A stretch of DNA of 64,000 bases from a virus (IMGVR_UViG_3300035696_000035:1-64000); one strand, 5' to 3'; shown: positions 1,848-39,467, counted from the stretch's first letter. A program made the numbers and translations. The notes: generated by a model not told the origin, from the letters alone.

Positions 1848-2102
1848 TCACCCTGGATCTCTCAGCTCGCCCTCCCAGACCCAGCCGTACTTCTGGTCGC
1901 ACAGCACCAGCACCATGTGGTCCCCGAAGGCGGGTCCCGGCTTCGTCGCCAGCACCAGGGCCACGGTGTCGTCTTTCAGCATCCCGACGATGTCTCCCCG
2001 GTCGCTGCCGTCCCCCGGCAGCCGCCACATCCAGGTGATGTGGTCCCCGCCCGAGCTCGCTGTCTCGCTGGACTTCGTCAGGGCTAGGTCTCCCGGTCTC
2101 AC
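1848..2102 (-). CDS. family-A small beta-rich protein (PGDLV/GW paralog)
   Basis: MRPGDLALT.. N-terminus, VALVLA and YGWVWEGEL C-terminal signature shared with >20 paralogs. Confidence 0.5.
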   Translation of the reverse strand: MRPGDLALTKSSETASSGGDHITWMWRLPGDGSDRGDIVGMLKDDTVALVLATKPGPAFGDHMVLVLCDQKYGWVWEGELRDPG

Positions 2103-2332
2103 GGCGCTAGCCTGAACTGTTCCTTCTCCCGCCAGCCGAAGTACACCCCGCCGTCGCCCTTCGGCACCATGACGAACACGCTGGTCTCGTTGACTGCTAG
2201 CACCAGGGCGGGCTGGTCGTGCCGCAGGTTCGTCACCGACTTGCTGGTGGTGCTCCAGACCTCGGGCTCGTCGAACAGGGTCAGGAAGGAGTGGTTCTCC
2301 CTGGTCAGCACCGTGTCCCCGGGCTTGATCAC
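2099..2332 (-). CDS. family-A paralog
   Basis: GTG start (VIKPGDTVLT) overlapping TGA of upstream gene (GTGA); ALVLAV..YFGW motif. Confidence 0.5.
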   Translation of the reverse strand: MIKPGDTVLTRENHSFLTLFDEPEVWSTTSKSVTNLRHDQPALVLAVNETSVFVMVPKGDGGVYFGWREKEQFRLAP

Positions 2333-2598
2333 GCTTCTTCGATCAGGTGCTGGCCCACCCAGCCAAACCTGCCCCCGCACAGGACCAGCGCCCAGTCCCA
2401 CTGCGGGTGGGTGCCCAGCAGCAGGCACACGTCCTGCATCCTGATCTGGCCCACCAGCTTGGGATCGTGTTCTTCGTCCCGGATGTGGTTGACGTCGGGC
2501 TGGTACGGAGCCGGCACGTTGCTGAGGCCGATGCTGCCGCCCTCGTCGAGCAGGGTCCTGCCCTGGGCGCTGAGCTTCACCAGGTCACCGGGCTTCAT
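2329..2598 (-). CDS. family-A paralog
   Basis: Trimmed to MKPGDLVKL (ATGA overlap with 2595..2795 gene); ALVLC..FGWVG motif. Confidence 0.5.
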   Translation of the reverse strand: MKPGDLVKLSAQGRTLLDEGGSIGLSNVPAPYQPDVNHIRDEEHDPKLVGQIRMQDVCLLLGTHPQWDWALVLCGGRFGWVGQHLIEEA

Positions 2599-2795
2599 GC
2601 CTGTCCCTTGGGCCTGGGTTGGGTGCTGATGGCGAAGCCGAAGAGTTCCTCTTCTTCTTTGGCGAGCTCCCGTAGCCGGCGGTTGCGTGCCCACCAGCAC
2701 TGGACGTGGCACACCTCGACCGGCACCCCGTCCCGGATGGTGATCATCGAGGTCTCCCCCGTGTCGATGGGTTCACCGCAGACCGGGCAGCTCAC
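2595..2795 (-). CDS. family-C zinc-ribbon protein
   Basis: 66 aa; CPVCGEPID..x..VCHVQCWW four-ligand pattern shared with 2792..3037 and 4094..4429. Confidence 0.5.
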   Translation of the reverse strand: MSCPVCGEPIDTGETSMITIRDGVPVEVCHVQCWWARNRRLRELAKEEEELFGFAISTQPRPKGQA

Positions 2796-3037
2796 CGCAG
2801 CACCTCGCCCGAACCCGAGAACACTGTCGGCTCGCTGCCGATGGAGTGACGAGCGTTGCGTTGCCAGCTTGCGGTGCCCGAGCCCCCGTCGCTCTCGCCC
2901 CTCAACTCAGCAACGACCGCCGTCAACCGGGCACACTCGGCCTTCCACCAGCACAGCTCGTGGTACCAGTGCCCGTCGAGGATGTGCGGCGCCTCAGGTG
3001 TGATGTCTTCGTCACAGAAGGTGCAGACCGGGACCAT
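2792..3037 (-). CDS. family-C zinc-ribbon protein
   Basis: Trimmed to MVPVCTFCDEDI..HWYHELCWW; N-terminal Ser/Arg-rich extension of the track ORF discarded. Confidence 0.45.
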   Translation of the reverse strand: MVPVCTFCDEDITPEAPHILDGHWYHELCWWKAECARLTAVVAELRGESDGGSGTASWQRNARHSIGSEPTVFSGSGEVLR

Positions 3038-3041
3038 GCTG

Positions 3042-3293
3042 TCATGGTACCACCTCAAAGTATGCTGTACCCTGCCAACCCAACTGGTTGCGGCACAACA
3101 CCAAGAGCAACCGCGACTTCCAAGAGAGCTGGACCTCAGAGGTAGCGATGACGATGCCCACGTCATCGGGCTCGAACGACCCGCAGGTTCGCTTGCCCTC
3201 TGTGGTGTCGAGCTGCCACTCGCGGACGTTCCACAGGGAGACTGAGGCGTTGCCGGTGTTCTTCAGCCTCACCAGGTCCCCCGGCTTGATCAC
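3042..3293 (-). CDS. family-A paralog
   Basis: GTG start (VIKPGDLVRLKN) in GTGA overlap with 3290..3565; GIVIAT..LGWQG motif. Confidence 0.5.
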   Translation of the reverse strand: MIKPGDLVRLKNTGNASVSLWNVREWQLDTTEGKRTCGSFEPDDVGIVIATSEVQLSWKSRLLLVLCRNQLGWQGTAYFEVVP

Positions 3294-3565
3294 TCGACCA
3301 CCTCGAACTGGGTCGTCTCCCGCCAGCCCATCTTGGAGTCCCCGTCCCCCGTCGCCACCAGCACCAGGCACTCAGTCGCTGATGAGACCTCGTCGTATGG
3401 GATCTCGTTGACGGCCAACACCAAGCCCACGTCTTCCGGTTGCATCTGGTAGACCTCAGGGATCGAGGTGCCGCCTCCGACAGTGAGGGCGACGGGTCCC
3501 GGCTTGGCGAACAGGGTGACGAAGCCATCGGGCTGCACGATCTTGACGGTGTCTCCCGGCTTCAT
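3290..3565 (-). CDS. family-A paralog
   Basis: MKPGDTVKIVQP..GLVLAV..MGWRETTQFEVV; ATGA-coupled to neighbours. Confidence 0.55.
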   Translation of the reverse strand: MKPGDTVKIVQPDGFVTLFAKPGPVALTVGGGTSIPEVYQMQPEDVGLVLAVNEIPYDEVSSATECLVLVATGDGDSKMGWRETTQFEVVE

Positions 3566-3882
3566 GGCACCAGCTCGAACATGCGGGTCTCGTTCCAGCC
3601 GAACTGGTCACCGAACAGCACCATCACCTGGTCACCCAGGCCCTCGAGGCCCTTCTGTTCGGGCCCGATGGCGATGTGCCGGGCTAGCACCAGTCCCACC
3701 CGGTTCCACATCGCTTTGCCAGTGATGCCGCTGCCTCCCTGGTCCTTCCACAGGGTGACGTTGGTCGTCTTGGGTCCGGTGTCCTCTTGGCGTGGCCACA
3801 CCAGCGCGCCCGGCACGATCCGCATGTCGGGTTGCCACACCTGGCGCTCGCCCGCCATCGCTGAGGACTGTTCGACGCTCAC
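3562..3882 (-). CDS. family-A paralog (divergent N-terminus)
   Basis: IVPGALVWP..GLVLA..FGWNETRMFELVP, ending nearly identical to 3290..3565 paralog. Confidence 0.5.
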   Translation of the reverse strand: MSVEQSSAMAGERQVWQPDMRIVPGALVWPRQEDTGPKTTNVTLWKDQGGSGITGKAMWNRVGLVLARHIAIGPEQKGLEGLGDQVMVLFGDQFGWNETRMFELVP

Positions 3883-4094
3883 GGCAGCCCACGCACCCGT
3901 TCCAGCTGCCGGCGTGCATGGCGCTGCTCGGCTCGTTTCTTCTGCAAACGTTCTTGGATCCCCTGCCTACGGTTGAGGATCCAGTGTTGGAACTCCGAAG
4001 CCATGATGGGCGCGTCTTGCCGCTGCCCCTGCCCACGGAAGACCCACAGAATGGTCCATGCAGTGATGAGGGTGGCAACCACAGCTCGGCTCAT
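3879..4094 (-). CDS. small single-pass membrane protein
   Basis: Trimmed to MSRAVVATLITAWTILWVF (TM helix) followed by basic coiled region; TGATG coupling. Confidence 0.4.
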   Translation of the reverse strand: MSRAVVATLITAWTILWVFRGQGQRQDAPIMASEFQHWILNRRQGIQERLQKKRAEQRHARRQLERVRGLP

Positions 4095-4429
4095 CAGCGC
4101 CTCCTGAGGCGGTCCAGCACCGCGTGGGCCAGGGACTTCAGCAACGGCGGCTGCCGCAGCTGTTCCAGGTCGTGCTCGGCGTCCCACCGCTTGTGGCGTT
4201 CCTTCCAGACCTCGTCCGAGAGCAGCTTGTTCTCGCCCTCGAGGATGTGGTTGTCGTCCTGGAGTGAGCTTAGCTCTTCTTCGAGCTCATCGGCACGTTC
4301 GCTACGCTTCCGCAGGTAGCACAGCTCGTGAGCGAGCTCGCGGCCCAAGCGGGACGTCTGGATCATCCGGGTCCGGTCCTTGACCTTGTCGATCGGCCCG
4401 CTGCAGATGGGACACTTTTCGTGTTGCAT
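4094..4429 (-). CDS. family-C zinc-ribbon protein with coiled-coil tail
   Basis: Trimmed to MQHEKCPICSGPIDKV..LAHELCY after GGGGGA RBS-like stretch. Confidence 0.45.
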   Translation of the reverse strand: MQHEKCPICSGPIDKVKDRTRMIQTSRLGRELAHELCYLRKRSERADELEEELSSLQDDNHILEGENKLLSDEVWKERHKRWDAEHDLEQLRQPPLLKSLAHAVLDRLRRR

Positions 4430-4637
4430 CAGTCCCCCGTCAAGCGTGGTGCTTGCCACCCGCTGTGAAATACCCGTGACGGAAGCCCGTCGATGACCCC
4501 TCGCGGTGCCCGCGGTCGTAACCGACCCGGTACGCAACGAGCCACGTCACCGCTCCCGTCACGAACACCGACAGGAGTGTCACCCAGGTGCTGTCGTCCA
4601 TGTGTCCACCTTAACTCGCGCGTGGTACGTTTGCACC

Positions 4638-4901
4638 ATGAAGCCGGGTGACCTCGTCAAACGCAAGGACAAGTGGCGGGACACCAACGTGAACTCGGGT
4701 CGCATCTTCCTGATGCGGGACGCCGAGAAGTTCAACGAGGCGGTCTGCGAGTTCCACTACGACAGGCTCGCTCTGGTCGTCGCCGTCAAACACGTGATGT
4801 GGTCCGACTTCATCGGCGGGGACTTTGCCCTGCTCCTCTACGAGGGGACGTACGGCTGGACGCTGGTCGGCGAGCTGGAGGCTGTCAGCCCGGGCTCGTG
4901 A
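4638..4901 (+). CDS. family-A paralog
   Basis: MKPGDLVKRKDKW..LALVVAV..YGWTLVGELE. Confidence 0.5.
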   Translation: MKPGDLVKRKDKWRDTNVNSGRIFLMRDAEKFNEAVCEFHYDRLALVVAVKHVMWSDFIGGDFALLLYEGTYGWTLVGELEAVSPGS

Positions 4902-5172
4902 GCCGTTCGATGGTGTCCTCGTAGAACTTGACCAGCGCGTCCACGGCCAGCACCTCGTTGCGGGCTGCCTTCTGCTTCTCGTAGGCCTCGACCAGCTTGT
5001 CGCGGTAGTAGGTGAGGTCGTCGACGGGTTTTGCCGCCTGCCTCTCCTGCTTCTTCCTGGCGGCGAAGGCCTGGAACGCAGCGTCCGACTTGATCAACTT
5101 CTCGGGCTTCCGTTCCTGCTTCTTGGTCGCCTTCTTCTTGTCCTTCTTGTGATCCTTCTTCTTGCTTGCCAT
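4885..5172 (-). CDS. lysine-rich basic protein (histone H1-like tail; putative DNA-binding)
   Basis: Trimmed to MASKKKDHKKDKKKATKKQERK..; GGGGAG RBS-like 6 nt upstream. Confidence 0.5.
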   Translation of the reverse strand: MASKKKDHKKDKKKATKKQERKPEKLIKSDAAFQAFAARKKQERQAAKPVDDLTYYRDKLVEAYEKQKAARNEVLAVDALVKFYEDTIERLTSPG

Positions 5173-5210
5173 CTCCCCATCGTATACACCCGGATGATGT
5201 AGGATAGGGC

Positions 5211-6101
5211 ATGACTGTCGTCTTCGTCTACTCCAAGAGGAACCAGGAAGCGACCACCCTGGCATACTTCGACTACGTGCTGGCCGCGATGCAGGCCAAC
5301 GGCGCCCTGGTGCTGGAGGAGTCGAGGTTCATGGCGTCAGGCAAGGACATGCTGGTCCCACACGGTGACCGCCTCGTCAACTTCTACTGTGACAACCCAG
5401 CTGCGGTGTGGCAGCGGTGCCTGCCCCAGTTCAGATGGAACTACGCCATCGATGAGATCGCTCAACCCGACGGACGAGCCTACGCCACCAAGATCAAGCA
5501 GTGCAAGGAGAACGACTGCACCAAGATGGTCGTTACCTACATGTCACCCCGACACCTGCTCAACCTGCGCCAGGCGGGCATCTCCTACGTCGGCATGCCG
5601 TGCTGTCCCCCGAGGATCCGCACCCGTGTCTCCAAGCCCCGTGCCGTCGCCGCCTTTGGTTCCTACCACCCGACGACGTACCCTGAACGGACCCGCATCA
5701 AGGAAGCGTTGGTCAGGTCGTTTGGAGCGCAGCACGTCCATGAACACCTGAACCCACCCGCCACGGGGGAACGGTTCTACGAAGCGTTGGACGGTTACCA
5801 GATGGGCATCGTCGACCGTGCTGGCTTCCGCGACCGCTTCGTCAACAAGTACGTCGAGTTCGGGGCCTCACATGTGCTGCCCATCGGCGACTGCCCCAGC
5901 TACATGCCCCGTGACATGCGGGAAGCGATGGTCAACACCGAGGGCAAGAACGCCAAGTGGATCATCAGCGAGGTCAACCGCTTGCTGCACACACCACAGG
6001 AACTGATGCTACGCCAGGAGAACTACACTGAGGCGGTGTCGAAGAACTTCAACCTGCTGCAACACGCTGGCCGCGTTGTCCAGACGATCACGGCAGCCTG
6101 A
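5211..6101 (+). CDS. hypothetical protein, possible glycosyltransferase (CgeB/GT1-like C-terminus)
   Basis: 296-aa ORF; RFYEALDGYQMGIVD resembles GT1 E-x7-E region; weak. Confidence 0.4.
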   Translation: MTVVFVYSKRNQEATTLAYFDYVLAAMQANGALVLEESRFMASGKDMLVPHGDRLVNFYCDNPAAVWQRCLPQFRWNYAIDEIAQPDGRAYATKIKQCKENDCTKMVVTYMSPRHLLNLRQAGISYVGMPCCPPRIRTRVSKPRAVAAFGSYHPTTYPERTRIKEALVRSFGAQHVHEHLNPPATGERFYEALDGYQMGIVDRAGFRDRFVNKYVEFGASHVLPIGDCPSYMPRDMREAMVNTEGKNAKWIISEVNRLLHTPQELMLRQENYTEAVSKNFNLLQHAGRVVQTITAA

Positions 6102-6852
6102 TACCGATGAGCTCGTCGCAGCGGTTGTAGAAGTCGCTGCTGAATGGGACACCACGGAACGGGTTCTTCCGGGACCTGCCCTGGTGGAGGACGAAGGGCG
6201 TGCCGTCGGGCAGGTGCCATTCTTCGTACGAGGTCGGGAACGCCGCCAACGCCTTGCGACACTTGGGGTCGTCGATGTTCTCGAAGGCAAGGGACGTCAG
6301 GCCGTTGTCACGGAGGAAGATCGGGAAGTTCCAGCACGCGTCCTGCAACACCCGGTAGTCAGCGGGCAGCCCATACAGGTCCTGTAGTTCAGGAGTGTTG
6401 GTCATCAGGGGTTGGGTTGGGTTGCACCTCGCCGGTTCGTACAAGTGCCAGGGCTTCCCTGGTTTCAGCGCCATCCACTCGACGTTGGGCTTGCCCTTGT
6501 ACGTCTGGTACCTGCTGAAGCCCGTCTGCTTGGTGCCGATCCTCTGGTACGCGGTGCCCACGCAGTCGTAGGTCTCCAACATCTGTTTCAGTGCGATGTC
6601 CCAGTCCGCCATCACCACGACGGTGTCGCTGTCGCAGACCACATGGATTGCCTCGGGTTCCTTCTGCATCGACTGGAACGCTTCCTTCACGGCTCGGCAG
6701 TGGTTGTCTGCGGGTTCAGGCGGGTTCTTGGGAACGATGTGCTTCTCAAGCCGCAACGCTTCCTTATCAGCAGCAAGACGTTGCATCGCTCCGAAGCAGT
6801 ACCCCGCGTATGACCCGGTGCCTTGTCCTGTCGGAATGTGGACGACTATCAT
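6088..6852 (-). CDS. hypothetical protein, possible GT-A fold glycosyltransferase
   Basis: 254-aa ORF; HVVCDSDTVVV DxD-like motif after N-terminal beta-alpha-beta (MIVVHIPTGQG). Confidence 0.4.
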   Translation of the reverse strand: MIVVHIPTGQGTGSYAGYCFGAMQRLAADKEALRLEKHIVPKNPPEPADNHCRAVKEAFQSMQKEPEAIHVVCDSDTVVVMADWDIALKQMLETYDCVGTAYQRIGTKQTGFSRYQTYKGKPNVEWMALKPGKPWHLYEPARCNPTQPLMTNTPELQDLYGLPADYRVLQDACWNFPIFLRDNGLTSLAFENIDDPKCRKALAAFPTSYEEWHLPDGTPFVLHQGRSRKNPFRGVPFSSDFYNRCDELIGIRLP

Positions 6853-6911
6853 GGCTGCTTCACCATATCATATCAGTGCAAGCGAACGCCAGGCTGAAGT
6901 AAGGTAGCTCC

Positions 6912-7133
6912 ATGAGCGCCTACTGCGTAGGCTTCGAACACGACGGTAGCTCCACACCTGCCTGCCTAGTCAGCGGGGCAGACGAGATCGCGGCGATTTG
7001 TAATGCAGGCGGTCCAACATTGGAAGGAACCGTCGCCGTGGTGCTGACCATTCCGGTCGACCCGCAGAAGCCCGCTGCAGCCAGGTATCGTTGCAAGAAG
7101 GGCCAGTGGGTCCTGGAAAGCAGATCACCGTGA
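6912..7133 (+). CDS. hypothetical protein
   Basis: 73-aa ORF following divergent intergenic region 6853-6911. Confidence 0.35.
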   Translation: MSAYCVGFEHDGSSTPACLVSGADEIAAICNAGGPTLEGTVAVVLTIPVDPQKPAAARYRCKKGQWVLESRSP

Positions 7134-7489
7134 CAGAGGATACGAAGACACACATCATCAGCCAAAAGCTCGCCAACTACCGAGAAGCCGACAGGTGCTG
7201 CCCGGTCTGTGATGACGGAACCCGCATCAAACGGATGCAAGTGGTCAACGTCAACGAAGAGACGGGCAACATCACCTTCGGTGGCTACTACTGGGTCTGT
7301 GAGAGCAACCCGGACGATACCGACCACTACCAGTACAGCCCAGGCGGTGGCAGGCGGGGAGCGAAGCCCAGGGAGTCAGTCCACGCTCACGTACCCGAAC
7401 GTTTCAAGCCCAGCTTCGTCATGCAACCCCGAGGTCCTGGCCACGTCATCAAACGAGGCAAGGACGGCAAGAAGACGGTGATCAAGTGA
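7131..7489 (+). CDS. hypothetical zinc-ribbon protein
   Basis: GTG start in GTGA overlap; CCPVCDDG..x..YYWVCES Cys pairs. Confidence 0.4.
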
Positions 7490-7686
7490 ACAGGCACCTC
7501 CCAATCGTCTCCGAAACCACTGAAGCAACCGAACTCTCCGTCGCCGTCAAGTTTCCCAAGAAGGTGGAACGTATCCGACGTGAAGCACGCATCGCTCACT
7601 ACGTCAACAACTACAGCGTCAGGACGCTGGCGGAGCTCATCGTGTCGTTGGAGGACAAGTATGGGATCCCCTCCGCGATCGACTGA
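7486..7686 (+). CDS. hypothetical protein
   Basis: 66-aa ORF, GTGA-coupled start. Confidence 0.35.
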   Translation: MNRHLPIVSETTEATELSVAVKFPKKVERIRREARIAHYVNNYSVRTLAELIVSLEDKYGIPSAID

Positions 7687-8101
7687 GCTCACACGGCTGG
7701 GCCGAGCGCTCCGTCGCGAGCTCGAGCCACTGGTCAAACAACACCCAGACGAGTTCGGCTTTCCCAACTACATGGGTGCCTGCGGTGTCGCGGCCTACGC
7801 CATGTGCAAGCTGCTGCGTCGCCTGGGAAGCCAACCCAAGCTCGTCATGTCGGGCGGCCCGTTCCCGGGCAGCAGGCACTGTTGGACCGAGGTGGACGGC
7901 TTCATTGTGGACCTGACAGCGACACAATTCGGCTACACCAAGCCAGTCCAGGTCGTCACCCGCCGGAGTGAATGGCACACGCCATGGCTTTGCGAAGGTC
8001 GAGATGCACTGGAGCGCTTGAAGACCTGGGATCTCCAGAACCCGCTGAAGCACCGTGAGGCCATCGATGCCGCGGTGAGCCGGGTCCTCACACCTCGCTG
8101 A
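7661..8101 (+). CDS. putative transglutaminase-like cysteine peptidase
   Basis: Cys (GACGVAAYAMC), His (RHCWTEVDGF), Asp (IVDLTATQ) spaced like transglutaminase-like triad; start uncertain. Confidence 0.35.
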   Translation: MGSPPRSTELTRLGRALRRELEPLVKQHPDEFGFPNYMGACGVAAYAMCKLLRRLGSQPKLVMSGGPFPGSRHCWTEVDGFIVDLTATQFGYTKPVQVVTRRSEWHTPWLCEGRDALERLKTWDLQNPLKHREAIDAAVSRVLTPR

Positions 8102-8369
8102 AGCACAGCAAGCTGTTCCATCCCAAGCGAGTGCCGAACAACACCAACGCTTCCAGGTGCTTGCCACCCGCTGCCCACCCGTCAGCGGCGTCGGTCTCAA
8201 CCTCGACCACAGCAATGAGCAAACCGACCTCGTCGAGCTCCACAGTGCCGACCGTCGGGTTGTCAGGAGTGAAGGGCTCCGGTCGCTTCAACAGCACGAC
8301 CCGGTTGCCTCCCGTCTCAGTGCCTCTGTCGACAGGGTCGACCTTGATGAGGCTGCCGGGCAGCATCAC
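8088..8369 (-). CDS. family-A paralog
   Basis: MMLPGSLIKV..GLLIAVV..LGWNSLL. Confidence 0.45.
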   Translation of the reverse strand: MMLPGSLIKVDPVDRGTETGGNRVVLLKRPEPFTPDNPTVGTVELDEVGLLIAVVEVETDAADGWAAGGKHLEALVLFGTRLGWNSLLCFSEV

Positions 8370-8659
8370 TCGCTGCGGCGGTGCGCCAGCTCCGCGATGA
8401 AGTGACCTAGCTTGGCATACTCACAGCCCAGGGCGACCAGGTCACGTGGAGTGCACCAGCCTGCACCGATGTTGCGGGTCTTGCGGCCCTTGATGTCCTG
8501 GAAGAGTCCGTAGATGGGCTTGATCTTGAGCATCTCGGCCCCGACCTCCTCACGGTCCAAGACGTCGATGACCACGTAGAGGACCCCGCCTGCGATGCCC
8601 TGGTACTCGCAGGTGCAGACGTCGCCCTTCTGCCACACGTGTTTCTGGTCGTCGCTCAT
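8366..8659 (-). CDS. family-B protein (LG..Y..LGHFI.E.A tail)
   Basis: C-terminal LVALGCEYAKLGHFIAELAHRRSE shared with 8656..9003, 23869..24159, 24152..24499. Confidence 0.5.
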   Translation of the reverse strand: MSDDQKHVWQKGDVCTCEYQGIAGGVLYVVIDVLDREEVGAEMLKIKPIYGLFQDIKGRKTRNIGAGWCTPRDLVALGCEYAKLGHFIAELAHRRSE

Positions 8660-9003
8660 GCTTCCATGCCGAGGCGACGTGCCTCGTCCCGTATGAAGTT
8701 GCCGAGGTTCATGTACTCAGTGCCCAAGTCGACCAACGACAACGGAGTGCACTGGCGTGCCATGACGATTACCTTGCGGTTGTGGACGCCGAACAGCGGC
8801 GTCGCTTGTTCAAGTCGTAGACGAACAAAGCGTTGTCGGGAACCCGGGCTGGCTGTGTCTTTGGCGGGCAACACTTCAACAACGCGACTGATGATGCCAA
8901 TCCAGCGCTTGCACAGGTCGCCGACACGCCATTCGTTTTCTTCCTTCCGGCCGTTGAGTGCCATCGGATGCTCCAGGTCTCGATTGTCTGCCGTGCTGGT
9001 CAT
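8656..9003 (-). CDS. family-B protein
   Basis: C-terminal LSLVDLGTEYMNLGNFIRDEARRLGMEA. Confidence 0.5.
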   Translation of the reverse strand: MTSTADNRDLEHPMALNGRKEENEWRVGDLCKRWIGIISRVVEVLPAKDTASPGSRQRFVRLRLEQATPLFGVHNRKVIVMARQCTPLSLVDLGTEYMNLGNFIRDEARRLGMEA

Positions 9004-9053
9004 AGTGTACCACGACAGTGAAAGTGAGAGGCCACCCGTGGTATGATTAGACC
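9004..9053. promoter_or_regulatory. divergent intergenic region with shared AGTGTACCA motif and TATGAT -10-like hexamer
   Basis: Only about 50 bp between divergently oriented gene blocks; AGTGTACCAC also present in the 27362-27404 divergent region. Confidence 0.3.
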
Positions 9054-9626
9054 ATGGAGCAGGAACTGGAGCAAGAGCTCACCACCCCCAAGCCACCACC
9101 TGTCATTGACGATGCGGACGAGGCTCCCAGCGAGGAGGACCTGCTCTCACACGAGCAGCGGTTCCAGCGCTGGCAGTCCAAGCGTCCGCCCATCGACCAC
9201 CTTCGCGATGCTCTCCACGTCGACCACCAGACGGGCGACATCGTGCCGCTCTTCGATGTGGGTGACCGCATCGTGGTCGACCGCCGGACGACCCTCCTCA
9301 AGGGGGTGCCCTGGCTGGAGACCATCGTCGGCAAGGTTCGCAGCATCGACGACGACACCGGCCTGGTCACCGTCTACGACGAGGACTCGGACCCGCGCAA
9401 CCCGCCCGTCCGTTACACATCGTTCAAGGATGGTCTCCACACCTTCAAGCTCGCCCCGGAACGTGGCAACCCATTCGAGCCGCCTCCGCCTCCCAAGAAG
9501 GAGAAGCCCCAGCCCGTCCCGGGCAAGAAGGGCCGTGGGCGGCCGAAGGGCAGCAAGAACCGTCCGAAGGACGTCATCAAGGCCGAGCGTGAGGCTCGCA
9601 AAGCAGCGAAAGGGAACAACAAGTGA
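9054..9626 (+). CDS. AT-hook-containing protein (putative DNA-binding)
   Basis: C-terminal PGKKGRGRPKGSKNRPKD AT-hook; acidic N-terminus; first gene after divergent region 9004-9053. Confidence 0.5.
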   Translation: MEQELEQELTTPKPPPVIDDADEAPSEEDLLSHEQRFQRWQSKRPPIDHLRDALHVDHQTGDIVPLFDVGDRIVVDRRTTLLKGVPWLETIVGKVRSIDDDTGLVTVYDEDSDPRNPPVRYTSFKDGLHTFKLAPERGNPFEPPPPPKKEKPQPVPGKKGRGRPKGSKNRPKDVIKAEREARKAAKGNNK

Positions 9627-9901
9627 GCCAGCTCATCCCGGAACTCGACGACCCGTTCGACCTCGCGGTCTTGCTGGAGGACACCTACGACTCGCCTCCC
9701 ATTGTCTCCGCGTTGCCGTCTTCGCCGCCCAACGCTCTCATCGTGACCACGCCCTGCGGCGACGAGATCGTGCCCTTCCATGACCTGGAAGACCCGACCA
9801 TCATCATCCGGGACGTGGAGCTGGCGGCGTTGCTAGCTGATTCCAGCCCACACACCCACAAGACGGTGCCCAGCTTCCACGCCGTCAAGCCAGTCACATG
9901 A
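9623..9901 (+). CDS. hypothetical protein
   Basis: 92-aa ORF, ATGA-coupled. Confidence 0.35.
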   Translation: MSQLIPELDDPFDLAVLLEDTYDSPPIVSALPSSPPNALIVTTPCGDEIVPFHDLEDPTIIIRDVELAALLADSSPHTHKTVPSFHAVKPVT

Positions 9902-10002
9902 ACCAGCTCGTCACAGACCTCTTCTTCTGCTTGCCCGCCGGAGTGGCAGCGTTGCTGTTCCTCTGCACAGTCGGCGGGTGGGGGATGAAGAAGAGGTCAC
10001 CG

Positions 10003-11126: not shown

Positions 11127-11127
11127 G

Positions 11128-11669: not shown

Positions 11670-11672
11670 GCC

Positions 11673-12175: not shown

Positions 12176-12176
12176 C

Positions 12177-31575: not shown

Positions 31576-31845
31576 TCAGTGACGCCAGGTCACTCGGCCC
31601 TTGGTAACGTCATAGGGTGACACCTCGATCGTTACGTTGTCTCCTGGTAGCAGCCGGATCCTGTTGATCCGCAGCTTGCCTGACAGCGTACAGACGACGG
31701 TGTTGCCCATTGTCGTCTTCACCCGGAACAGCGTTCCGGGCATTGCTTCCTCAACGCGGCCCTCGAACTCGAGGCGGTCTTCCCGTACCTCCTGCTCGGT
31801 TGTAGACCCTTGCGCCTGGTTGACCCATCTCCGTCTCTTGCTCAT
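31576..31845 (-). CDS. infA: translation initiation factor IF-1 (S1-like OB fold) with about 24-aa N-terminal extension
   Basis: EFEGRVEEAMPGTLFRVKTTMGNTVVCTLSGKLRINRIRLLPGDNVTIEVSPYDVTKGRVTWR aligns along full length to bacterial IF1 ([50 protein letters not shown]). Confidence 0.75.
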   Translation of the reverse strand: MSKRRRWVNQAQGSTTEQEVREDRLEFEGRVEEAMPGTLFRVKTTMGNTVVCTLSGKLRINRIRLLPGDNVTIEVSPYDVTKGRVTWRH

Positions 31846-32108: not shown

Positions 32109-32498
32109 ATGGCGAAACAGCGGAAACATGTGTACGTTCCCATCCCGTGTAAGGGATGTAGACAAGAGTTCACTCCCAAGGCTTCGTGCCAGAAGTTCTG
32201 CGTCATATGCATCCCCAACAAGAAGGCTCAGGGGCGTCGCCAGATCTACGGCCTCACGCAGCCTGAGTTTGAGAGGATGTTGCAAGAGCAAGACGGGAAG
32301 TGCTTCTTTTGCAGACGCGATTTCGCCGCAATGTTCAACGGCAAGTTTTCTCCGATCTGCGTTGACCATGACCATCAGACGAACCGCGTACGAGGTTTGC
32401 TGTGTCGGAAGTGTAACATGCTCTTGGGCTGGTTGGAGCTGTGCCCTCCCGGCATCCTGCGAAAGATCGAGAGCTACCTCAGTCATCCGTGTATCTGA
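32109..32498 (+). CDS. endonuclease VII-like (HNH-type) nuclease
   Basis: VDHDHQTNRVRGLLCRKCNMLLG core; CxxC pairs at N-terminus. Confidence 0.7.
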   Translation: MAKQRKHVYVPIPCKGCRQEFTPKASCQKFCVICIPNKKAQGRRQIYGLTQPEFERMLQEQDGKCFFCRRDFAAMFNGKFSPICVDHDHQTNRVRGLLCRKCNMLLGWLELCPPGILRKIESYLSHPCI

Positions 32499-32930: not shown

Positions 32931-33188
32931 TTGGAGGTGAGTGCCCCTGACTTGCTGCCTGGAGACCTCATCAGGATCACGGGCGTCTTCAACGTGTCAG
33001 GAAGCCCCGTCCTCGCCAAGGGCCAGGAAGCGTTGGTGATCTCAACGCCTGGCGTTTTTCCTGACCAACGAGAGGCGTTGCTCCTTACAGACGGTCGTTT
33101 GGTCACCATCGCTGACTGGTGGCTGCGAGCGAACTGCGACGTGTTGAACGACCCCACACCTGGTCGCTCCCGGCCAGGCCACGTCTGA
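32931..33188 (+). CDS. family-A paralog
   Basis: LLPGDLIRITG..ALVIST.. Confidence 0.45.
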   Translation: MEVSAPDLLPGDLIRITGVFNVSGSPVLAKGQEALVISTPGVFPDQREALLLTDGRLVTIADWWLRANCDVLNDPTPGRSRPGHV

Positions 33189-33199
33189 TAGGTACTTGC

Positions 33200-33988
33200 A
33201 TGCCTGGTCCTTTCGCTGCCTTCACCATCACACGCAACGAAGCTCTGTTCTTGCCGCTATGGTGCCAGTACTACTCGACGGTGTTCGGCGAAGAGAATTG
33301 CTACATCATCGACAACGACACCACCGACGGATCAGTGGAGACAGTCAAGCAACGATTCCCGAGCATCAACGTCGAGCAGCAACACCGTGAAGCGGAACAC
33401 GACACCCGGTGGTTGCTTGAGGTGGTCCAGCGGAAGCAACGTCAACTGTTGGCATCACACAAGGTCGTTGTCTTTGCGGAAACTGATGAGTTCCTGTTGG
33501 CAAAGCCAGGAGGCAAGTACAAGGACCTCCATGATGTGTGTGAACAGTTGTTGGTTGATCCTCACCGCAACTGGATCCAAGCTCAAGGTTGGCAGTGCAT
33601 GCAAGCACCTGACGAGCCAGCGATCACTGTGGTGAGGGGCGAGCCGGCGTTGAAGGACCGAGCAACCGTCCAACAGCACGAACAGTACTGCAAGACGCTG
33701 GTCAGCAAGGTCCCGTTGTCATGGGTCGGAGGCTTTCACTGGCGAGACATCGGGAATGGCCGAGGCGACAAGAACCCCAGCTCCATCGACTCTGACTTGG
33801 CATTGTTGCACCTGTGGACGTTGGATGCTGAGGCGTTCATGGAACGTCGTCGTAACAGGATGCAGAAGTGGGGCCAACTCGAGAAGTGGCCCGACATGTG
33901 GACGATGTTCAAGGATCAAGAGAACAGCTGCAGGCTGCATGCATCTATGCCTACTCCCGAGGAGTGGAGAGAGCTGTTGGTCTGGTGA
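33200..33988 (+). CDS. putative glycosyltransferase (GT-A fold; paralog of 35778..36569)
   Basis: Trimmed to MPGPFAAFTITRNE; IDNDTTDGSVE DxD-type motif; shares AFTITRNE/TTDGSVE/DLALLH blocks with 35778..36569. Confidence 0.55.
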   Translation: MPGPFAAFTITRNEALFLPLWCQYYSTVFGEENCYIIDNDTTDGSVETVKQRFPSINVEQQHREAEHDTRWLLEVVQRKQRQLLASHKVVVFAETDEFLLAKPGGKYKDLHDVCEQLLVDPHRNWIQAQGWQCMQAPDEPAITVVRGEPALKDRATVQQHEQYCKTLVSKVPLSWVGGFHWRDIGNGRGDKNPSSIDSDLALLHLWTLDAEAFMERRRNRMQKWGQLEKWPDMWTMFKDQENSCRLHASMPTPEEWRELLVW

Positions 33989-35091
33989 TGCTGCCGTACG
34001 ATTACCTCGTCGTCGGTGCGGGTCTTTTCGGAGCCACCTTTGCTTGGCATGCCGTCCAGCGCGGCAAGCGGGTGCTGGTCATCGACAAGCGAGATCACAT
34101 CGCCGGCAACGTCTACACCAAGCAACAGGAAGGCATCCACGTCCACACCTACGGCCCTCACATCTTCCACACCAGCGACCATGAGGTCTGGGCCTTCGTC
34201 AACAAGTTTGCCAGCTTCCACCGCTACGTCCACCACGTCAAGGCCCGCAACGGTGACCGGGTCTTCTCGTTGCCCATCAACCTGATGACAATGTACCAGT
34301 TGTGGGGCGTCACCAGCCCGAGTGAGGCCGAGGCCAAGCTCGCTGCGGTGCGGGTCCCGTGCGATCGCCCGCAGAACATGGAGGACTGGGCGCTGTCCCA
34401 GGTCGGGCCCGAGCTGTACGAGCTGCTGTTCAAGGGCTACACCACCAAGCAGTGGGGGCACCCGCCCAACGAGCTGCCCGCTTCGATCCTGAAGCGGCTA
34501 CCCATCCGCCTGTCATGGGACGACGACTACTTCACCGACACCTGGCAGGGGATTCCCGCCGGGGGCTACACCCGGATTGTCGAGCAGCTGCTGGAGGGCT
34601 CAGAAGTCCGCCTGCGGGTCGATTACCTGGCCGACAGGCAAGCGCTAGACGCCCTGGCACCGACGGTGGTCTACACCGGTCCCATCGACGCGTACTTCGG
34701 CTACTCACTCGGGCAGCTGGAATACCGGACGATGTCGTTCGACACTCAAGTGCTCGACGTACCCGACTACCAGGGCTGCGCCCAGCTGAACTGGACGGGC
34801 ACGGAAGTGCCGTGGACCCGCACCGTCGAGCACAAGCACTTCGAGATGGTCAACGTGCCCAAGACTGTCGTCACCTGGGAGACGCCCTCAGCTTGGCAAC
34901 CCGGTAGCGAACCCTACTACCCGGTGTGTGATGCCAAGAACAACGCGCTCTACGTTGAGTACAAGCAGATGGCTGACCAGCTCCCAAACGTCAGGTTCGG
35001 CGGGCGCCTCGGCACCTACAAGTACTACGACATGCACCAGGTCATCGCCCAAGCATTGCACATGTGCCGAAAGGAGGGTCTGCTTGCCTGA
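33988..35091 (+). CDS. glf: UDP-galactopyranose mutase
   Basis: Start in TGATG overlap; YDYLVVGAGLFGA FAD motif; near-colinear similarity to bacterial Glf (HIFHT, KQWG, GIPAGGYT, YTGPIDAYF, EHKHF, YYPVNDAKN, GRLGTYKYYDMHQVI). Confidence 0.85.
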   Translation: MLPYDYLVVGAGLFGATFAWHAVQRGKRVLVIDKRDHIAGNVYTKQQEGIHVHTYGPHIFHTSDHEVWAFVNKFASFHRYVHHVKARNGDRVFSLPINLMTMYQLWGVTSPSEAEAKLAAVRVPCDRPQNMEDWALSQVGPELYELLFKGYTTKQWGHPPNELPASILKRLPIRLSWDDDYFTDTWQGIPAGGYTRIVEQLLEGSEVRLRVDYLADRQALDALAPTVVYTGPIDAYFGYSLGQLEYRTMSFDTQVLDVPDYQGCAQLNWTGTEVPWTRTVEHKHFEMVNVPKTVVTWETPSAWQPGSEPYYPVCDAKNNALYVEYKQMADQLPNVRFGGRLGTYKYYDMHQVIAQALHMCRKEGLLA

Positions 35092-35788
35092 CATCATTGC
35101 ATCGTTCCTGCTGCCGACCCGGGGTCGTCCCGATCGTCTAGTCCAGAGCATCCAATCGATTCACACTCGTAACGGCAGCATCAAGCGTTGGGATGACACC
35201 GACATCCCGAACTACGAGATCCTGATCCGGGCAGACGTTGATGACAAGCCGACGTGCGACCTGGTCAAGCCATGGGTCAACGACATCTATTGCCGGGTCA
35301 CCCTCGGACCCAGGCACCGCGGCTACCTCGACCTGCACCTGATGGTGAACCAGCTCGCGGTCCGTGCTCGAGGCGAGTTCCTGGTGTTGTGGAACGACGA
35401 TGCCCTGATGCAGACGGAAAACTGGGACGACGTGTTGAAGCGACACCTTGCTGACCCGCCACGCATCTACCATCCCACCTCAGCCGGGACCAACCGCAAC
35501 ATCTTCCCGATCGTCAGGCGTAGCATCTACGGAGCTATGGGCCGCTTCAGCGAGAGCGCTCTCAACGACTTCTACGTGTGGACGCTGGCCAAGCGGTTGG
35601 GCATCAACACCCACATTGACATCGACATCAAGCACGACCATCCTCAGGTCGGCGGCACCAACATCGACCAGACCTACCTCGATGCAGCCGCCGCATGTGG
35701 TATCGTCAAGCACGACGACAAGGATCCTCGGATCCTAGCGTGCCTGGCTGAGGACGAGGCCAAGATCCGAACGTTGCTCAATAGGTGA
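35085..35788 (+). CDS. family-2 glycosyltransferase
   Basis: TTG start after GAAAGGAGGG RBS; LLPTRGRPDRL (GT2 PTYNR-type) and ADVDDK DxD. Confidence 0.6.
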
Positions 35789-36569
35789 GCAGCGACCGCC
35801 AGTGATCGGGCACCGGCGTCTCAGGACCGACGGCATGGGGATCACCCTCGTTGACCCATGGGGCTTTGTGAGTCCTGAAGTACTCGCTTGCGGTCGCCTT
35901 GTTGAGGTCCAGGAACCTGCCGCTGTGTCGATTCACGTACTCGTCAATGTCAACGCGCCAGGCATGAAGCAACGCTAGATCGACATCGATGGGTTCATCA
36001 ACCTGCTTGACTCCGGCGTCGAAGAAGTTGTGGAAGCCCTTCTGGTACACTATCGGTTTCTTGGTGATCAACGTTTTGTCGTACGTTGGCAGCAACCACA
36101 TCGAATTGCGAGCTTCCAGGAGGCTCGCGCCGGGCTCGCGTCTGACAGCCGGCTCCGTATCGATCTGCTGGACAACGTTCCAACCCTGAGCCCGACGCCT
36201 TGTCGAGGTTGGATCATCATTGAACTGTTGACAGTAGTCGAGCAGACCTGCATACCTGGTGCTCGGGATCAGGTACTCGTCGGTCTCGCTGAAGACAACA
36301 ACGCGGTAACGTTGAAGCAGCTCACGTTGGAACGCTTCGACAGTCCCCTTCAAGAACAGGCTGACATGCGCCACAGGTGAGTCTCGAAAGACGAAGTTGA
36401 CGGTTGGGTGCAACGCTCTTGCCTCTTCAACGCTGCCGTCCGTCGTCGAGTTGTTGATGACATAGACGTCCTCTGGCGGGAAGACCTTCGTCATGTAGTT
36501 GAGCCACACCCGGAGAAACAGGGGCTCGTTGCGCGTGATGGTGAAGGCAGCGAAGTCGTGTTCTCCCAT
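35778..36569 (-). CDS. putative glycosyltransferase (paralog of 33200..33988)
   Basis: AFTITRNEPLFL, INNSTTDGSVEE, DLALLHAW conserved blocks. Confidence 0.55.
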   Translation of the reverse strand: MGEHDFAAFTITRNEPLFLRVWLNYMTKVFPPEDVYVINNSTTDGSVEEARALHPTVNFVFRDSPVAHVSLFLKGTVEAFQRELLQRYRVVVFSETDEYLIPSTRYAGLLDYCQQFNDDPTSTRRRAQGWNVVQQIDTEPAVRREPGASLLEARNSMWLLPTYDKTLITKKPIVYQKGFHNFFDAGVKQVDEPIDVDLALLHAWRVDIDEYVNRHSGRFLDLNKATASEYFRTHKAPWVNEGDPHAVGPETPVPDHWRSLLTY

Positions 36570-36949: not shown

Positions 36950-36955
36950 CCATCA

Positions 36956-37252: not shown

Positions 37253-37933
37253 ATGAGACGTTTTGTTCCCGCCCTCGCCGCAATGGCGCTCGTATGCGGT
37301 TGCGCAGCAAGCGCGCCGCCCCCGCAACCCGTTCCCCCGAAGGCCGCAATCGTGGCCTTGGCTTCGCCGCCCGCACAGCTGGCCCCGAAGCCCACCACCA
37401 ACCACATCGTCCACAAGGATTGGGACATCACCGTCCCCGCTGACTGGACCGTCAGCGACGAGGATGAGACGGGCGTCAAGGCTGTTCGAGCTGCCGACAA
37501 GGCGAACCACGTGCTGCCCGCGCTGGTCGAGGTTGCCAGCCAAGACGTCGACCCCACCATCGATGCCAAGCAGAACGCGGTGATGCTGTCAGTGATGTGC
37601 GTCGCTGCCGCTTCACAGGACAACGAGGACAACATCGACGGTGTCCGTCGCGGGTTCATCGTCTACGAGGGTCGCATCGGCTCGTTGACACAGGTCGGCT
37701 TCAAGAACGGCAGCTTCACCGGTTGCATCGGCCTCCTCGATGAGACAGCACATCGGTCGTACCTGATCGTTGCAGTTGCCCCACAGGACGACGGTCACCT
37801 GATGGCCACGATCTCGAAGACGTTCCACCTGCACAACCCGGCGCCGCCGCTGTCGAAGGACGATGACGACGACTCCACGCCGCCGGCACCCGATCCGAAG
37901 GCGGTACCGAAGCACACTTCGCTGAGCCTGTGA
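37253..37933 (+). CDS. putative lipoprotein
   Basis: Trimmed to MRRFVPALAAMALVCGCAAS after GAGGAGG RBS; lipobox-like LVCGC. Confidence 0.5.
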   Translation: MRRFVPALAAMALVCGCAASAPPPQPVPPKAAIVALASPPAQLAPKPTTNHIVHKDWDITVPADWTVSDEDETGVKAVRAADKANHVLPALVEVASQDVDPTIDAKQNAVMLSVMCVAAASQDNEDNIDGVRRGFIVYEGRIGSLTQVGFKNGSFTGCIGLLDETAHRSYLIVAVAPQDDGHLMATISKTFHLHNPAPPLSKDDDDDSTPPAPDPKAVPKHTSLSL

Positions 37934-38169
37934 ACGACGTCTGTCGCGAGCATGTGCCCGCGACGATGAGACCTGGGGACCTCATCAGGTTCCACGGGTT
38001 GGTAGGCGAAGACCGTGGCCCATGCCTCGTCATCGCAGTGTATCCCTGGCCCGACGTCGAGTACCCGGGCAAGAGGGTGTTGCTGCTGACGAGGCATCGC
38101 CGTTTGCTCACCCTGGAGATGGGTGGACCTGATGATGACCGGCCTTGGACGCTGATGAATGACGACTAG
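37930..38169 (+). CDS. family-A paralog
   Basis: GTGA start; MRPGDLIRFHG..CLVIAV.. Confidence 0.45.
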   Translation: MNDVCREHVPATMRPGDLIRFHGLVGEDRGPCLVIAVYPWPDVEYPGKRVLLLTRHRRLLTLEMGGPDDDRPWTLMNDD

Positions 38170-38389
38170 TGAACAGTGGCTGAAGCGCCTGGCTCCGGGG
38201 ACCATGCTCTACAACAAGGTCAAGCCCGAGCGTGGCTTCTTCCTTGTCATCACCGCTGATGTGAAGGAGTTCCCTGGGAAGTGGACTGAGCTGTTCGTCT
38301 TGGTGGTGACGCCAGAGTGCACATTGAAGAAACTCGAGGTAGAATCGGGTGTATTCACTGGCAACTGGGCCATCGTCGATGTCGACTGA
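38159..38389 (+). CDS. hypothetical protein
   Basis: 76-aa ORF. Confidence 0.4.
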   Translation: MTTSEQWLKRLAPGTMLYNKVKPERGFFLVITADVKEFPGKWTELFVLVVTPECTLKKLEVESGVFTGNWAIVDVD

Positions 38390-38657
38390 ACTGCTGACAC
38401 CCCTGCCCGGAGACACCGTCTACGCGGTGCACCGGATGCGAGCTTGGGAGAACGACCACGAGCGTGGTGTGGACGGAGTCTGGGTCGATCCCGAACAGGT
38501 CGCTCTCGTCATTGAGGTCAAGCGTGTCGGCCGTGGCCGGACCCGGATGCGGGTGCTGACGAACCAGCGGATCGTCATGTTCTCGTGCTACACCCGAGAC
38601 CTGGCACGGAATTGGCGCGTGGTGGGCCGACAGTTACCCACCTCTGGCAGCCTGTGA
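38379..38657 (+). CDS. family-A paralog
   Basis: Trimmed to MSTELLTPLPGDTVYAV; ALVIEV.. Confidence 0.45.
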   Translation: MSTELLTPLPGDTVYAVHRMRAWENDHERGVDGVWVDPEQVALVIEVKRVGRGRTRMRVLTNQRIVMFSCYTRDLARNWRVVGRQLPTSGSL

Positions 38658-39005
38658 TTATTCCGTGAGCCTCTGAGAGCCAAACAACCGGGCCGGATTG
38701 TGGACCTCGTCCGGGTGGATGATGCGATTGCCAGGCACCCGGTAGAAACCTGGCGAGACGATGCTGTCATCGTGCTCGTTCCCGATCAGCTTCTGGTCTC
38801 CCTTGATGCTGCCGAAGAAGACGATGTAGTACATGTGGGAGTCCTCGTAGAGAGCGCTGGGCTCCGTCCACTGGTGCGAACGCTGGACAACGAGTCCCAG
38901 CTGCAGGCCCCGGGTGAACTGTTCGATCTCGGTGCCACACCGAGCGATGAGGCTCGATTCGAGGACGACGATGAGGTCGCCGGGCAGCCAATCACGCGTA
39001 GGCAT
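38656..39005 (-). CDS. family-A-like protein
   Basis: WLPGDLIVVLE..LGLVVQ.. Confidence 0.4.
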
Positions 39006-39240
39006 GCAGCAATTCCCACCCGTGGTATGGGCCCAAGAACCTGATGCCGTAGGGCGTATCTCCGTACGTCATCACCCAGTACTTCCAGGGCTGACTGTCG
39101 GTCAGGCCACGCTCCTTCGCATCTGGGATCTGGTCGCTGGGTTGGACGCTGATGACCAGAGCGTTAACCTGCCATGACTTCCCCACGTCCTGGTGTAGGG
39201 TCAACAGCACTGGGTCCCCGGGCACGAAGGCGGGCTTCAT
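38992..39240 (-). CDS. family-A paralog
   Basis: MKPAFVPGDPVLLT..ALVISV..HGWELL. Confidence 0.45.
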   Translation of the reverse strand: MKPAFVPGDPVLLTLHQDVGKSWQVNALVISVQPSDQIPDAKERGLTDSQPWKYWVMTYGDTPYGIRFLGPYHGWELLHAYA

Positions 39241-39467
39241 GGCTTCAACGACCCCCGCTCTGCAACGCTAGGAACGTTGTTGAGGTCGATGACCTGCAAC
39301 GCGTCAGCCAGATGCCACTTGAACTTGGTCTGCTTGTCACCCGTCGTCCACAGCACCAGCCAGTTGTCTTCGGCGTCACGTCCGATGACGAGGCCCATCA
39401 AGTCGGCATCGACCTGCCACCTGATCCTCTTGACTACCAGCTCACCGGGCTTGAGGGGGAGGGCCAC
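39237..39467 (-). CDS. family-A paralog
   Basis: LKPGELVVKR..GLVIGR..LVLWTTG. Confidence 0.45.
   Translation of the reverse strand: MALPLKPGELVVKRIRWQVDADLMGLVIGRDAEDNWLVLWTTGDKQTKFKWHLADALQVIDLNNVPSVAERGSLKP

Follow-up and report, generated by a model that had tools for sequence, protein, structure and literature searches.

SH3b domains of the SH3_3 type (PF08239) are wall-binding domains, as in the Clostridium phage phiSM101 endolysin Psm (4krt) and at the N-terminus of NlpC/P60 proteins (3pvq and 3h41); they are extracytoplasmic and usually fused to a wall hydrolase or surface protein. GW modules, such as those of Listeria InlB and Ami and the R repeats of staphylococcal AtlE (1m9s, 7kwi and 4epc), occur as repeats in a single secreted lipoteichoic-acid-binding polypeptide. 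Here we describe A1, a family of small proteins encoded by a 64,000-nucleotide viral sequence (IMGVR_UViG_3300035696_000035:1-64000, hereafter the window), the predicted fold of which is like that of SH3b domains. Unlike SH3b domains, A1 proteins are leaderless and are either stand-alone or A1-A1 fusions, and unlike GW modules, they are encoded by separate, coupled open reading frames (ORFs) with their own starts and stops, are 26–38% identical to one another and have no Pfam GW match. We consider, with a probability of roughly 40%, that A1 is a genuine SH3b/GW-fold family of ~85-residue stand-alone proteins forming a cytoplasmic binding repertoire with paralog-specific surfaces. The sequence family and its architecture (free, cytoplasmic, tens of separate genes) would then be new, the fold being already known.

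Expansions of small proteins have been described in other large phages. Bacillus phage G, a jumbo phage, has expanded a small domain into ~35 zinc-ribbon proteins (Iyer et al. 2021, PMC7824862). Like A1, these are tens of very small paralogs in one huge phage; unlike A1, they have another fold, belong to another phage group and host, and have been proposed to bind DNA. Copy number varies widely, as for A1, in the giant-phage head families (SPN3US families A and B and the phiKZ inner-body proteins; 2–20 copies, PMC5694885), and the T-even internal proteins are diverse small proteins with one short conserved N-terminal element (PMC3012670, PMC9026906); the A2 proteins described below have a conserved leader and capsid-protein fragments. 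A1 has no sequence relationship to these head and internal proteins (no pfam12699 or other match), is leaderless and has a non-structural gene neighbourhood. It also differs from the five-stranded KOW domains of NusG/Spt5 and ribosomal L24 (PF00467) in its seven predicted strands and long insert, its mostly acidic composition and the absence of a Pfam KOW match.

To define the family, we started from a six-frame translation, which gave 953 stop-to-stop ORFs of 40 or more residues and in which the non-coding frames served as an internal control. All-vs-all BLASTP of these ORFs gave significant links among the candidates, and iterative hidden Markov model (HMM) searches split them into three groups, A1, A2 and A3, so the original prediction of one single family had merged at least three. 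Single-seed jackhmmer left several singletons unjoined, which was improved by a 152-sequence profile and by ortholog profiles; A1 grew from 10 members to 13 at E<1e-3 with the broader profile (152 homologs). HMM matches were confined to coding frames with high GC at third codon positions, and the first off-frame match among the 953 ORFs had E=0.007. Alignment of ortholog profiles with hhalign (probabilities in per cent) added two probable members, 37966 (94%) and 32931 (82%), where negative controls reached at most 1.9% and off-frame ORFs at most 4.9%. The paralog family is therefore real, and the predicted count of at least 25 is too high, with 13 significant and two probable A1 members. These are listed below with intermediate and interrupting genes; genes are named by their first coordinate in the window.

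1848–2102, minus strand: A1, 84 residues, last gene of the first tandem array; jackhmmer/hmmsearch E 1e-20 to 1e-26, hhalign 98.7%; ortholog P0034, 50%
2099–2332, minus strand: A1, 77 residues, 4-bp overlap with both neighbours; hmmsearch E 2e-15; ortholog in contig L001, 68%, dN/dS (ratio of non-synonymous to synonymous substitution rates) 0.46
2329–2598, minus strand: A1, 89 residues; hmmsearch E 6e-17, hhalign 98.8%; identical to P0004
2595–3045, minus strand: two zinc-ribbon-like paralogs (CxxC...CWW), non-members from their translations; no family-profile match
3042–3293, minus strand: A1, 83 residues; hmmsearch E 6e-22, hhalign 98.9%
3290–3565, minus strand: A1, 91 residues, modelled with AlphaFold2
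3562–3825, minus strand: A1, 87 residues, first gene of the array; hmmsearch E 3e-17, hhalign 98.3%
4638–4901, plus strand: A1, 87 residues, solitary; hmmsearch E 6e-18; orthologs P0008 (76%) and P0005 (64%)
8088–8369, minus strand: A1, 93 residues, solitary, overlapping the start of the A3 gene 8366; hmmsearch E 1e-18, hhalign 98.1%
10208–10498, plus strand: A1, 96 residues, divergent N-terminal half; broad-profile hmmsearch E 1e-7 to 2e-6, hhalign 84–85%
11673–11942, plus strand: A1, 89 residues, basic subfamily (GRRAIRTGDL); hmmsearch E 1e-17; orthologs P0010/P0011, 72%
11942–12175, plus strand: A1, 77 residues, coupled to 11673; hmmsearch E 2e-8; ortholog in contig L015 (10270–10536), 59%, dN/dS 0.13
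12443–12712, plus strand: possible divergent A1, 89 residues; hhalign 35% over 73 columns (ortholog profile), not significant
19907–20167, plus strand: A1, 86 residues, basic; hmmsearch E 6e-8 to 2e-12; identical to P0012
32931–33188, plus strand: probable A1, 85 residues; hhalign 82% over 59 columns (ortholog profile)
37966–38169, plus strand: probable A1, 67 residues, truncated C-terminus; hhalign 94–95%, hmmsearch E 2e-4 to 2e-3
38379–38657, plus strand: A1, 92 residues, basic; hmmsearch E 3e-6; ortholog in contig L009, 63%, dN/dS 0.18
39237–39467, minus strand: A1/A2 intermediate, 76 residues; hhalign 57% to A1 and 74% to A2, A2 profile E 2e-4

The tandem arrays that had been predicted are present and are interrupted by non-members, namely the zinc-ribbon-like genes at 2595–3045 and a methionine aminopeptidase (MetAP) gene at 20520–21263. 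Three genes to the left of 1848 are also non-members. Starts are tightly coupled, as had been proposed, with 4-bp ATGA/GTGA overlaps at four sites (1848/2099/2329, 3042/3290/3562, 21260/21499 and 22192/22554) and a 1-nt overlap between 11673 and 11942. The 21 listed genes occupy 9.0% of the window, close to the 10 per cent first estimated. The zinc-ribbon-like pair inside the first array consists of 2595–2795 and 2792–3045 (both minus strand), with the motifs CPVCGE...CHVQCWW and CTFCDE...YHELCWW.

The window has a GC content of 61%. One rival explanation is that the shared motifs only reflect the composition of GC-rich coding sequence and lack a homologous core. Six ORFs (10498, 20131, 21906, 38159, 38658 and 38992) do carry the motifs by eye while having no significant statistical support. 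For the 13–15 A1 members and five A2 members, an artefact is refuted: significant all-vs-all and profile matches occur in coding frames only, full-length homologs are found in independent metagenomes, the AlphaFold2 model is confident and orthologs are under purifying selection. We give this explanation practically no credence.

The three motifs of the original prediction proved to be conserved, at the places given for them, over 212 distinct members. In the N-terminal element, P is present in 93%, G in 100%, D in 89%, L in 78% and V in 78% of sequences; the central G-L-V-[IL]-A is conserved at 58–80% and L-V-L at 70–76%, with G at 99% and W at 100% in the C-terminal Gly-Trp. The conserved positions are P-G-D-L-V (residues 3–7), L18, G-L-V-[IL]-A, L-V-L, G-W and F87, and the remainder are near maximum entropy. 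An AlphaFold2 model from a 17-sequence alignment is a confident all-β structure of seven strands (predicted local distance difference test score, pLDDT, 91.7; predicted template modelling score, pTM, 0.80), and the conserved residues (PGDLV, L, GLV[IL]A, LVL, GW and F) fall on the predicted strands. Structural matches to this model scored as follows:

SH3b cell-wall-binding domain of the phage phiSM101 endolysin: 9.8
NlpC/P60 SH3b domains: 9.1, 8.3 and 7.8
InlB GW domains: 8.6
AtlE R2ab: 7.7
Eukaryotic SH3 and KOW domains: about 6

Because the best structural matches are SH3b and GW domains, A1 is predicted to be an SH3-like β-barrel of the bacterial SH3b/GW class. The model has the SH3b β-barrel fold, and A1 also has the features of a GW module (~80 residues, a conserved Gly-Trp and an SH3-like fold). 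Of the KOW/SH3-like barrel first suggested, the SH3-like part thus stands, in a more specific class, and KOW falls behind with its lower structural score. If the model is correct, A1 shows a fold known as an extracellular wall-binding module in a free cytoplasmic protein.

Sequence searches agree with the claim that the family is undescribed. Among 148 A1 members scanned singly against Pfam-A at E<=1, there was no SH3_3, SH3_4, GW, KOW, Tudor or LSM match and no family recurred, with a single SH3_2 match at E 0.027; the 10 window members scanned gave no Pfam match. No PHROG matched any of the 148 at E<=0.01, and two chance-level matches were seen among 10 window members. No sequence relative was found in the PDB, BFVD held nothing at E<=1e-3, and a nucleotide search of 7 kb plus 2.2 kb of the window against the 50,697 phage records of INPHARED found no match.

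The structural matches raise the question of whether A1 proteins are canonical envelope binders of the SH3b/GW type, acting as free modules for peptidoglycan stem peptides, cross-bridges or teichoic-acid-like polymers. They would then work with the endolysin or in adsorption, the many paralogs covering many wall chemotypes. The best matches are indeed GW modules and the wall-binding domains of lysins, both phage and bacterial; GW is an invariant dipeptide in A1; and the window encodes a phage lysozyme/endolysin (55666–56910). Known SH3b/GW systems (InlB, Ami and AtlE) typically have several tandem modules, which also favours this explanation. Yet A1 lacks a signal peptide and a membrane segment, is not encoded at a holin-linked position, is never fused to a catalytic domain, matches none of the SH3_3, SH3_4 and GW profiles, and is arrayed ~50 kb away from the endolysin gene. 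We also know of no lysis system with 30 or more separate free binding domains. Together these points make wall binding quite unlikely.

Several properties instead suggest that A1 is cytoplasmic. The proteins are 60–121 residues long (median 85), and the domain begins at residue 1–4 in most members. A signal-peptide-like N-terminal hydrophobic run was seen in 0 of 152 members, and there is no membrane segment. The median isoelectric point (pI) is 5.4, with 103 of 152 members below 6.5 and a basic minority, and A1 domains are always stand-alone or in A1-A1 fusions, never fused to an enzyme. Their gene neighbours are non-structural (MetAP, AAA, GroEL, IF-1 and phosphoesterase). Cytoplasmic single-domain binders are therefore favoured, since A1 is small, mostly acidic, leaderless, enzyme-free and encoded among non-structural genes without the T4 late promoter TATAAATA.

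Each A1 paralog would be a small cytoplasmic binding module, in which a fixed scaffold carries a paralog-specific surface. This surface would be formed mainly by a long insert of variable length that links strand 1 to the central hairpin and occupies the position of the SH3 RT-loop, and each paralog would recognise a different partner. The set would be co-expressed from polycistronic messages and, during infection, would manipulate proteins or peptides of the host or of competitors. An anti-defence or host-interaction role, as originally envisaged, is plausible as a hypothesis.

The composition of A1 also bears on whether the proteins are nucleic-acid-binding factors of the KOW, Tudor or Sm-like kind, associated with the ribosome or RNA polymerase and retuning host translation or transcription. 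Consistent with this, IF-1, MetAP and GroEL genes are present in the window, four members (11673, 11942, 19907 and 38379) are basic with pI 8.9–10.2, and the best match of the A2 module is an Spt5 KOW domain, at a non-significant level. Against it, most A1 members are acidic, SH3b structural matches clearly outscore KOW, and the 148 members yielded no KOW, Tudor or LSM match in Pfam, so that we regard such a function as very unlikely.

A word-indexed search of 5.8 billion proteins returned 13 A1 matches, half of which were the window's own, and an exhaustive HMMER scan of 1.84 billion representatives returned 177 at E<=1e-3. Nearly all of the 177 are full-length (75–100 residues), with few A1-A1 fusions. 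Two large proteins, P0044 and P0061, had seemed to be multi-domain relatives; P0044 is an HYR-repeat protein and a repeat-driven false positive. The sampled members come from metagenomes only, in clusters of 1–4 sequences, and a pattern scan for the 11673 subfamily across 185,579 species genomes found no A1.

The arrays recur in related huge-phage contigs, which, with the 177 matches among 1.84 billion representatives, bears out the claim of a lineage-specific expansion. Contig L005 (17.5 kb) has at least 16 A1 members and L001 has 4–5. The 369,475-bp IMG/VR contig IMGVR_UViG_3300005529_000001, the GroEL of which is 77% identical to that of the window, carries ~30 in one tandem run (86.7–98.1 kb) plus five scattered copies. 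It also carries an A2 pair, its arrangement is colinear with the window, and 11673 has a syntenic ortholog there. Copy number thus differs greatly among related phages, with 13–15 in the window, or about 15 to 21 by a broader estimate, and 35 or more in the 369-kb relative.

The supposition that the family is fast-evolving is not supported. Nearest paralogs within the window are 26–38% identical, whereas the orthologs of each window paralog elsewhere are 45–76% identical. Ortholog dN/dS is 0.13–0.51 compared with 0.19–0.26 for GroEL, values that are approximate because dS is near saturation, and A1 genes are under purifying selection. Clustered at 45% identity, the 212 sequences fall into 155 clusters. 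Sequences from different clusters agree at 65% of core positions and 13% of variable ones, compared with 40–67% of variable positions within ortholog clusters. In the 369-kb phage, 29% of the genes in a 32-gene stretch have their best paralog next to them, where ~6% would be expected, and the identity of any pair there is at most 47%. From these identities, the excess of neighbours and the cluster pattern, the expansion therefore originated by ancient local tandem duplication. The pattern does not look like that of a recent burst or of positive selection across whole genes, and describes an old, maintained repertoire in which whole copies are gained and lost between phages and each copy keeps its own surface.

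The A2 genes, which lie downstream of the MetAP gene, are the most unusual part of the finding. The five window members are:

21260–21502, plus strand: A2, 80 residues, leader plus three-strand β module; A2 profile E 7e-23; orthologs P0167/P0169/P0172
21499–21882, plus strand: A2, 127 residues; A2 profile E 2e-21; ortholog P0170
22192–22557, plus strand: A2, 121 residues; A2 profile E 9e-33, weak A1-profile match E 1e-4
22554–22967, plus strand: A2, 137 residues, tail corresponding to the C-terminal 47 residues of the major capsid protein (MCP); BLASTP and Pfam Gp23
23075–23296, plus strand: A2, 73 residues, tail corresponding to MCP N-arm residues 99–120; BLASTP and AlphaFold2

A2 proteins share a leader, MS-L-[KQ]-T-[YF] or MKLVHE, followed by the module PGxWVxH..fGMV[IV]A..VLWSxxP and by tails that are diverse. 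They retain only two of the three predicted features, the central hairpin and the PGDxV strand. In BLASTP, the tail of 22554 is 47% identical (E 4e-8) to residues 492–538 of the LR756508 MCP, the last 47 residues of this T4-type protein, and it also matches Pfam Gp23 at positions 316–343 (E 0.007). The tail of 23075 is 50% identical to MCP residues 99–120 (E 3e-4). AlphaFold2 models residues 1–33 of 23075 as a three-strand meander with pLDDT 92–96 and the remainder, the tail, as disordered. Long A2 relatives (P0174–P0179) score 30–36 bits against Pfam Gp23 (PF07068, cutoff 24.4) at profile positions 4–61. They match residues 76–120, at the same offset, of the full-length MCP of a 484-kb uncultured phage, and tblastn with their capsid segment matched 34 phage records, most annotated as MCP. 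A2 proteins are 73–212 residues long with MCP fragments of only 22–47 residues, and are not complete HK97-fold capsid proteins (~450–550 residues). The long relatives end in Trp/Arg/Ser-rich, out-of-frame-looking tails that nevertheless recur in independent contigs, and small A2 proteins with MCP fragments are also encoded in contig L019 (19743–21410). An assignment of A2 to the PcrA/UvrD Tudor domain or DUF3553 was rejected, having a single weak DUF3553 match (E 0.0098) and nothing in a PDB profile search.

Three observations link A2 to A1. Their profiles align with 80% probability in hhalign, over only 11 columns; the A1 profile aligns to a bridging A2 sequence by its strand 1 and central hairpin; and 39237 is intermediate between the two. 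From sequence, A2 is a probable truncated relative of A1, not a proven member. The capsid fragments suggest that A2 docks to capsid-assembly components by strand mimicry, with a function distinct from that of A1.

This possible kinship is a ground for regarding A1, along with A2, as virion-associated, either as capsid-internal or ejected cargo or as decoration, the barrel being a packaged effector or a surface adhesin. The A2 paralogs carry T4-type MCP fragments, long A2 relatives pass the Pfam Gp23 cutoff, and the A2 leader MS-L-[KQ]-T-[YF] is conserved. There are also parallels in the 2–20 copies of giant-phage head paralogs (PMC5694885) and in the T-even internal proteins, diverse anti-restriction proteins that have only a capsid targeting sequence in common (PMC3012670, PMC9026906). 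The corresponding evidence for A1 itself points elsewhere: it has no leader or propeptide, being folded from residue 1–4 in most members, its homology to A2 is weak (11 aligned columns), and its genes lie among non-structural genes in a window that lacks a full-length MCP gene, portal and tail genes and the late promoter TATAAATA. The T-even internal proteins are packaged in the head and ejected, and their targeting sequence is an N-terminal peptide of about 10 residues that ends in a prohead-protease site. In the A2 leader, no clear L/I-x-E site was seen; a possible likeness to the T4 capsid targeting sequence is a low-weight lead. We accordingly regard this explanation as unlikely.

Several points weigh against a cytoplasmic binding repertoire. 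This function of A1 is deduced from architecture, and the domains nearest to it in structure have extracellular ligands, cell-wall polymers, rather than cytoplasmic proteins. Fixed, housekeeping-like roles account better than an arms-race arsenal for the age of the paralogs and the purifying selection on them. Conservation of PGD and GW might reflect a functional site common to the members as well as the fold, and the possible kinship with the capsid-fragment proteins of A2 points towards the virion.

A doubtful extension joins two readings: A1 as a germline-encoded 'binder library', with one SH3b-like scaffold and tens of fixed specificities that would be expressed together and neutralise or redirect host or competitor targets, and A2 as a new class of leader/mini-β-module proteins mimicking the MCP N-arm or C-terminus, which would affect capsid assembly through strand mimicry as assembly modulators, capsid-docked cargo or poisons of competing T4-type phages.

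Paralogs are, to our knowledge, scarce or absent in most double-stranded DNA phages. With ~9% of a 64-kb stretch taken up by this family, and ~11 kb of a 369-kb relative, the genes must bring the phage a benefit. Should the copies each have their own target, the arrays would be ready-made natural single-domain mini-binders of ~85 residues, and, if the favoured reading of A1 as a cytoplasmic repertoire is true, a handle on host takeover by uncultivated soil huge phages. Within the sources searched, A2 is the first example encountered of small conserved proteins composed of MCP pieces, and gives a concrete, testable hypothesis on capsid assembly or inter-phage competition.

The third group, A3, is a separate four-member family encoded at 8366–8659 and 8656–8964 (minus strand) and at 23881–24159 and 24152–24499 (plus strand). 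It has an N-terminal GD[LIV][VC] strand, which is all it has in common with A1, and a conserved C-terminal helix motif, LVDLG..Y..LGNFIR; gene 8366 had no Pfam or PHROG match. Contigs of 51–61% GC conserve an arrangement downstream of MetAP in which an A3 gene comes after an A2 array, and one A3 copy follows the A2 array in the window and in contigs L016 and L017. Contig L001 encodes a 66-residue protein (11890–12090) with Pfam DUF4314. We take this to be a small SH3-like domain, which would mean further small β-barrel proteins in the lineage.

The larger window genes are indicators of a huge phage; they encode a GroEL-type chaperonin (39991–41631), two AAA ATPases and a FEN-type exonuclease, besides the MetAP, lysozyme, IF-1, sugar-nucleotide, vault-like and SPFH proteins described above and below. 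As relatives of the A2 genes carry gp23 segments and one encodes a T4_Y16D domain, the lineage is one of huge soil phages with a T4-type capsid. Two other soil contigs (63–70 kb) have the same gene order as the window, SPFH, AAA, MetAP, small-gene array, phosphoesterase, IF-1. The IF-1 homolog (31576–31845, minus strand; PF01176, E 7e-21) is kept in contigs L009, L016 and L017 and, with MetAP and GroEL, suggests a translation and proteostasis theme. A tRNA scan of the window found none, and a scan of positions 1–13000 for sigma-70 promoters and terminators gave results close to background.

A 1058-residue ORF (13020–16196, plus strand) is a Major Vault Protein (MVP) homolog, with Pfam MVP_shoulder (E 7e-29) and Vault repeat matches and a zinc-finger-like CxxCxGxG at its N-terminus. 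It is directly followed by an SPFH/Band-7 protein (16275–18197) and then by an AAA ATPase (18622–19902), both on the plus strand, and the SPFH-AAA pair is also kept in contig L017. Viral MVPs were first described from gut phages in a 2023 preprint (10.1101/2023.11.10.566534); the ORF found here would add a case from a soil huge phage, lying within an MVP-SPFH-AAA block that is conserved.

Further paralog pairs in the window comprise ~120-residue proteins at 23501–23869 and 32109–32498 (both plus strand; 39% identity, E 2e-22), glycosyltransferase-like proteins of ~265–290 residues at 33119–33988 (plus strand) and 35778–36569 (minus strand; 38% identity, E 6e-50), and the two AAA ATPases at 18622–19902 (plus strand) and 42268–44010 (minus strand; 29% identity, E 1e-13). 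A sugar-nucleotide set (33868–35091, plus strand; 52615–53865, minus strand; 35778–36569, minus strand) comprises a UDP-galactopyranose mutase, a UTP-glucose-1-phosphate uridylyltransferase-like protein (UDP-sugar pyrophosphorylase) and a weakly GT2-like protein, and may serve galactofuranose-based modification of DNA or of a surface. In its right half, the window also encodes an ADP-ribosylglycohydrolase-like protein (46085–46999, minus strand; phrog_6572, E 3e-19) and a transposase-like protein (58881–59849, minus strand; phrog_10081, E 4e-23).

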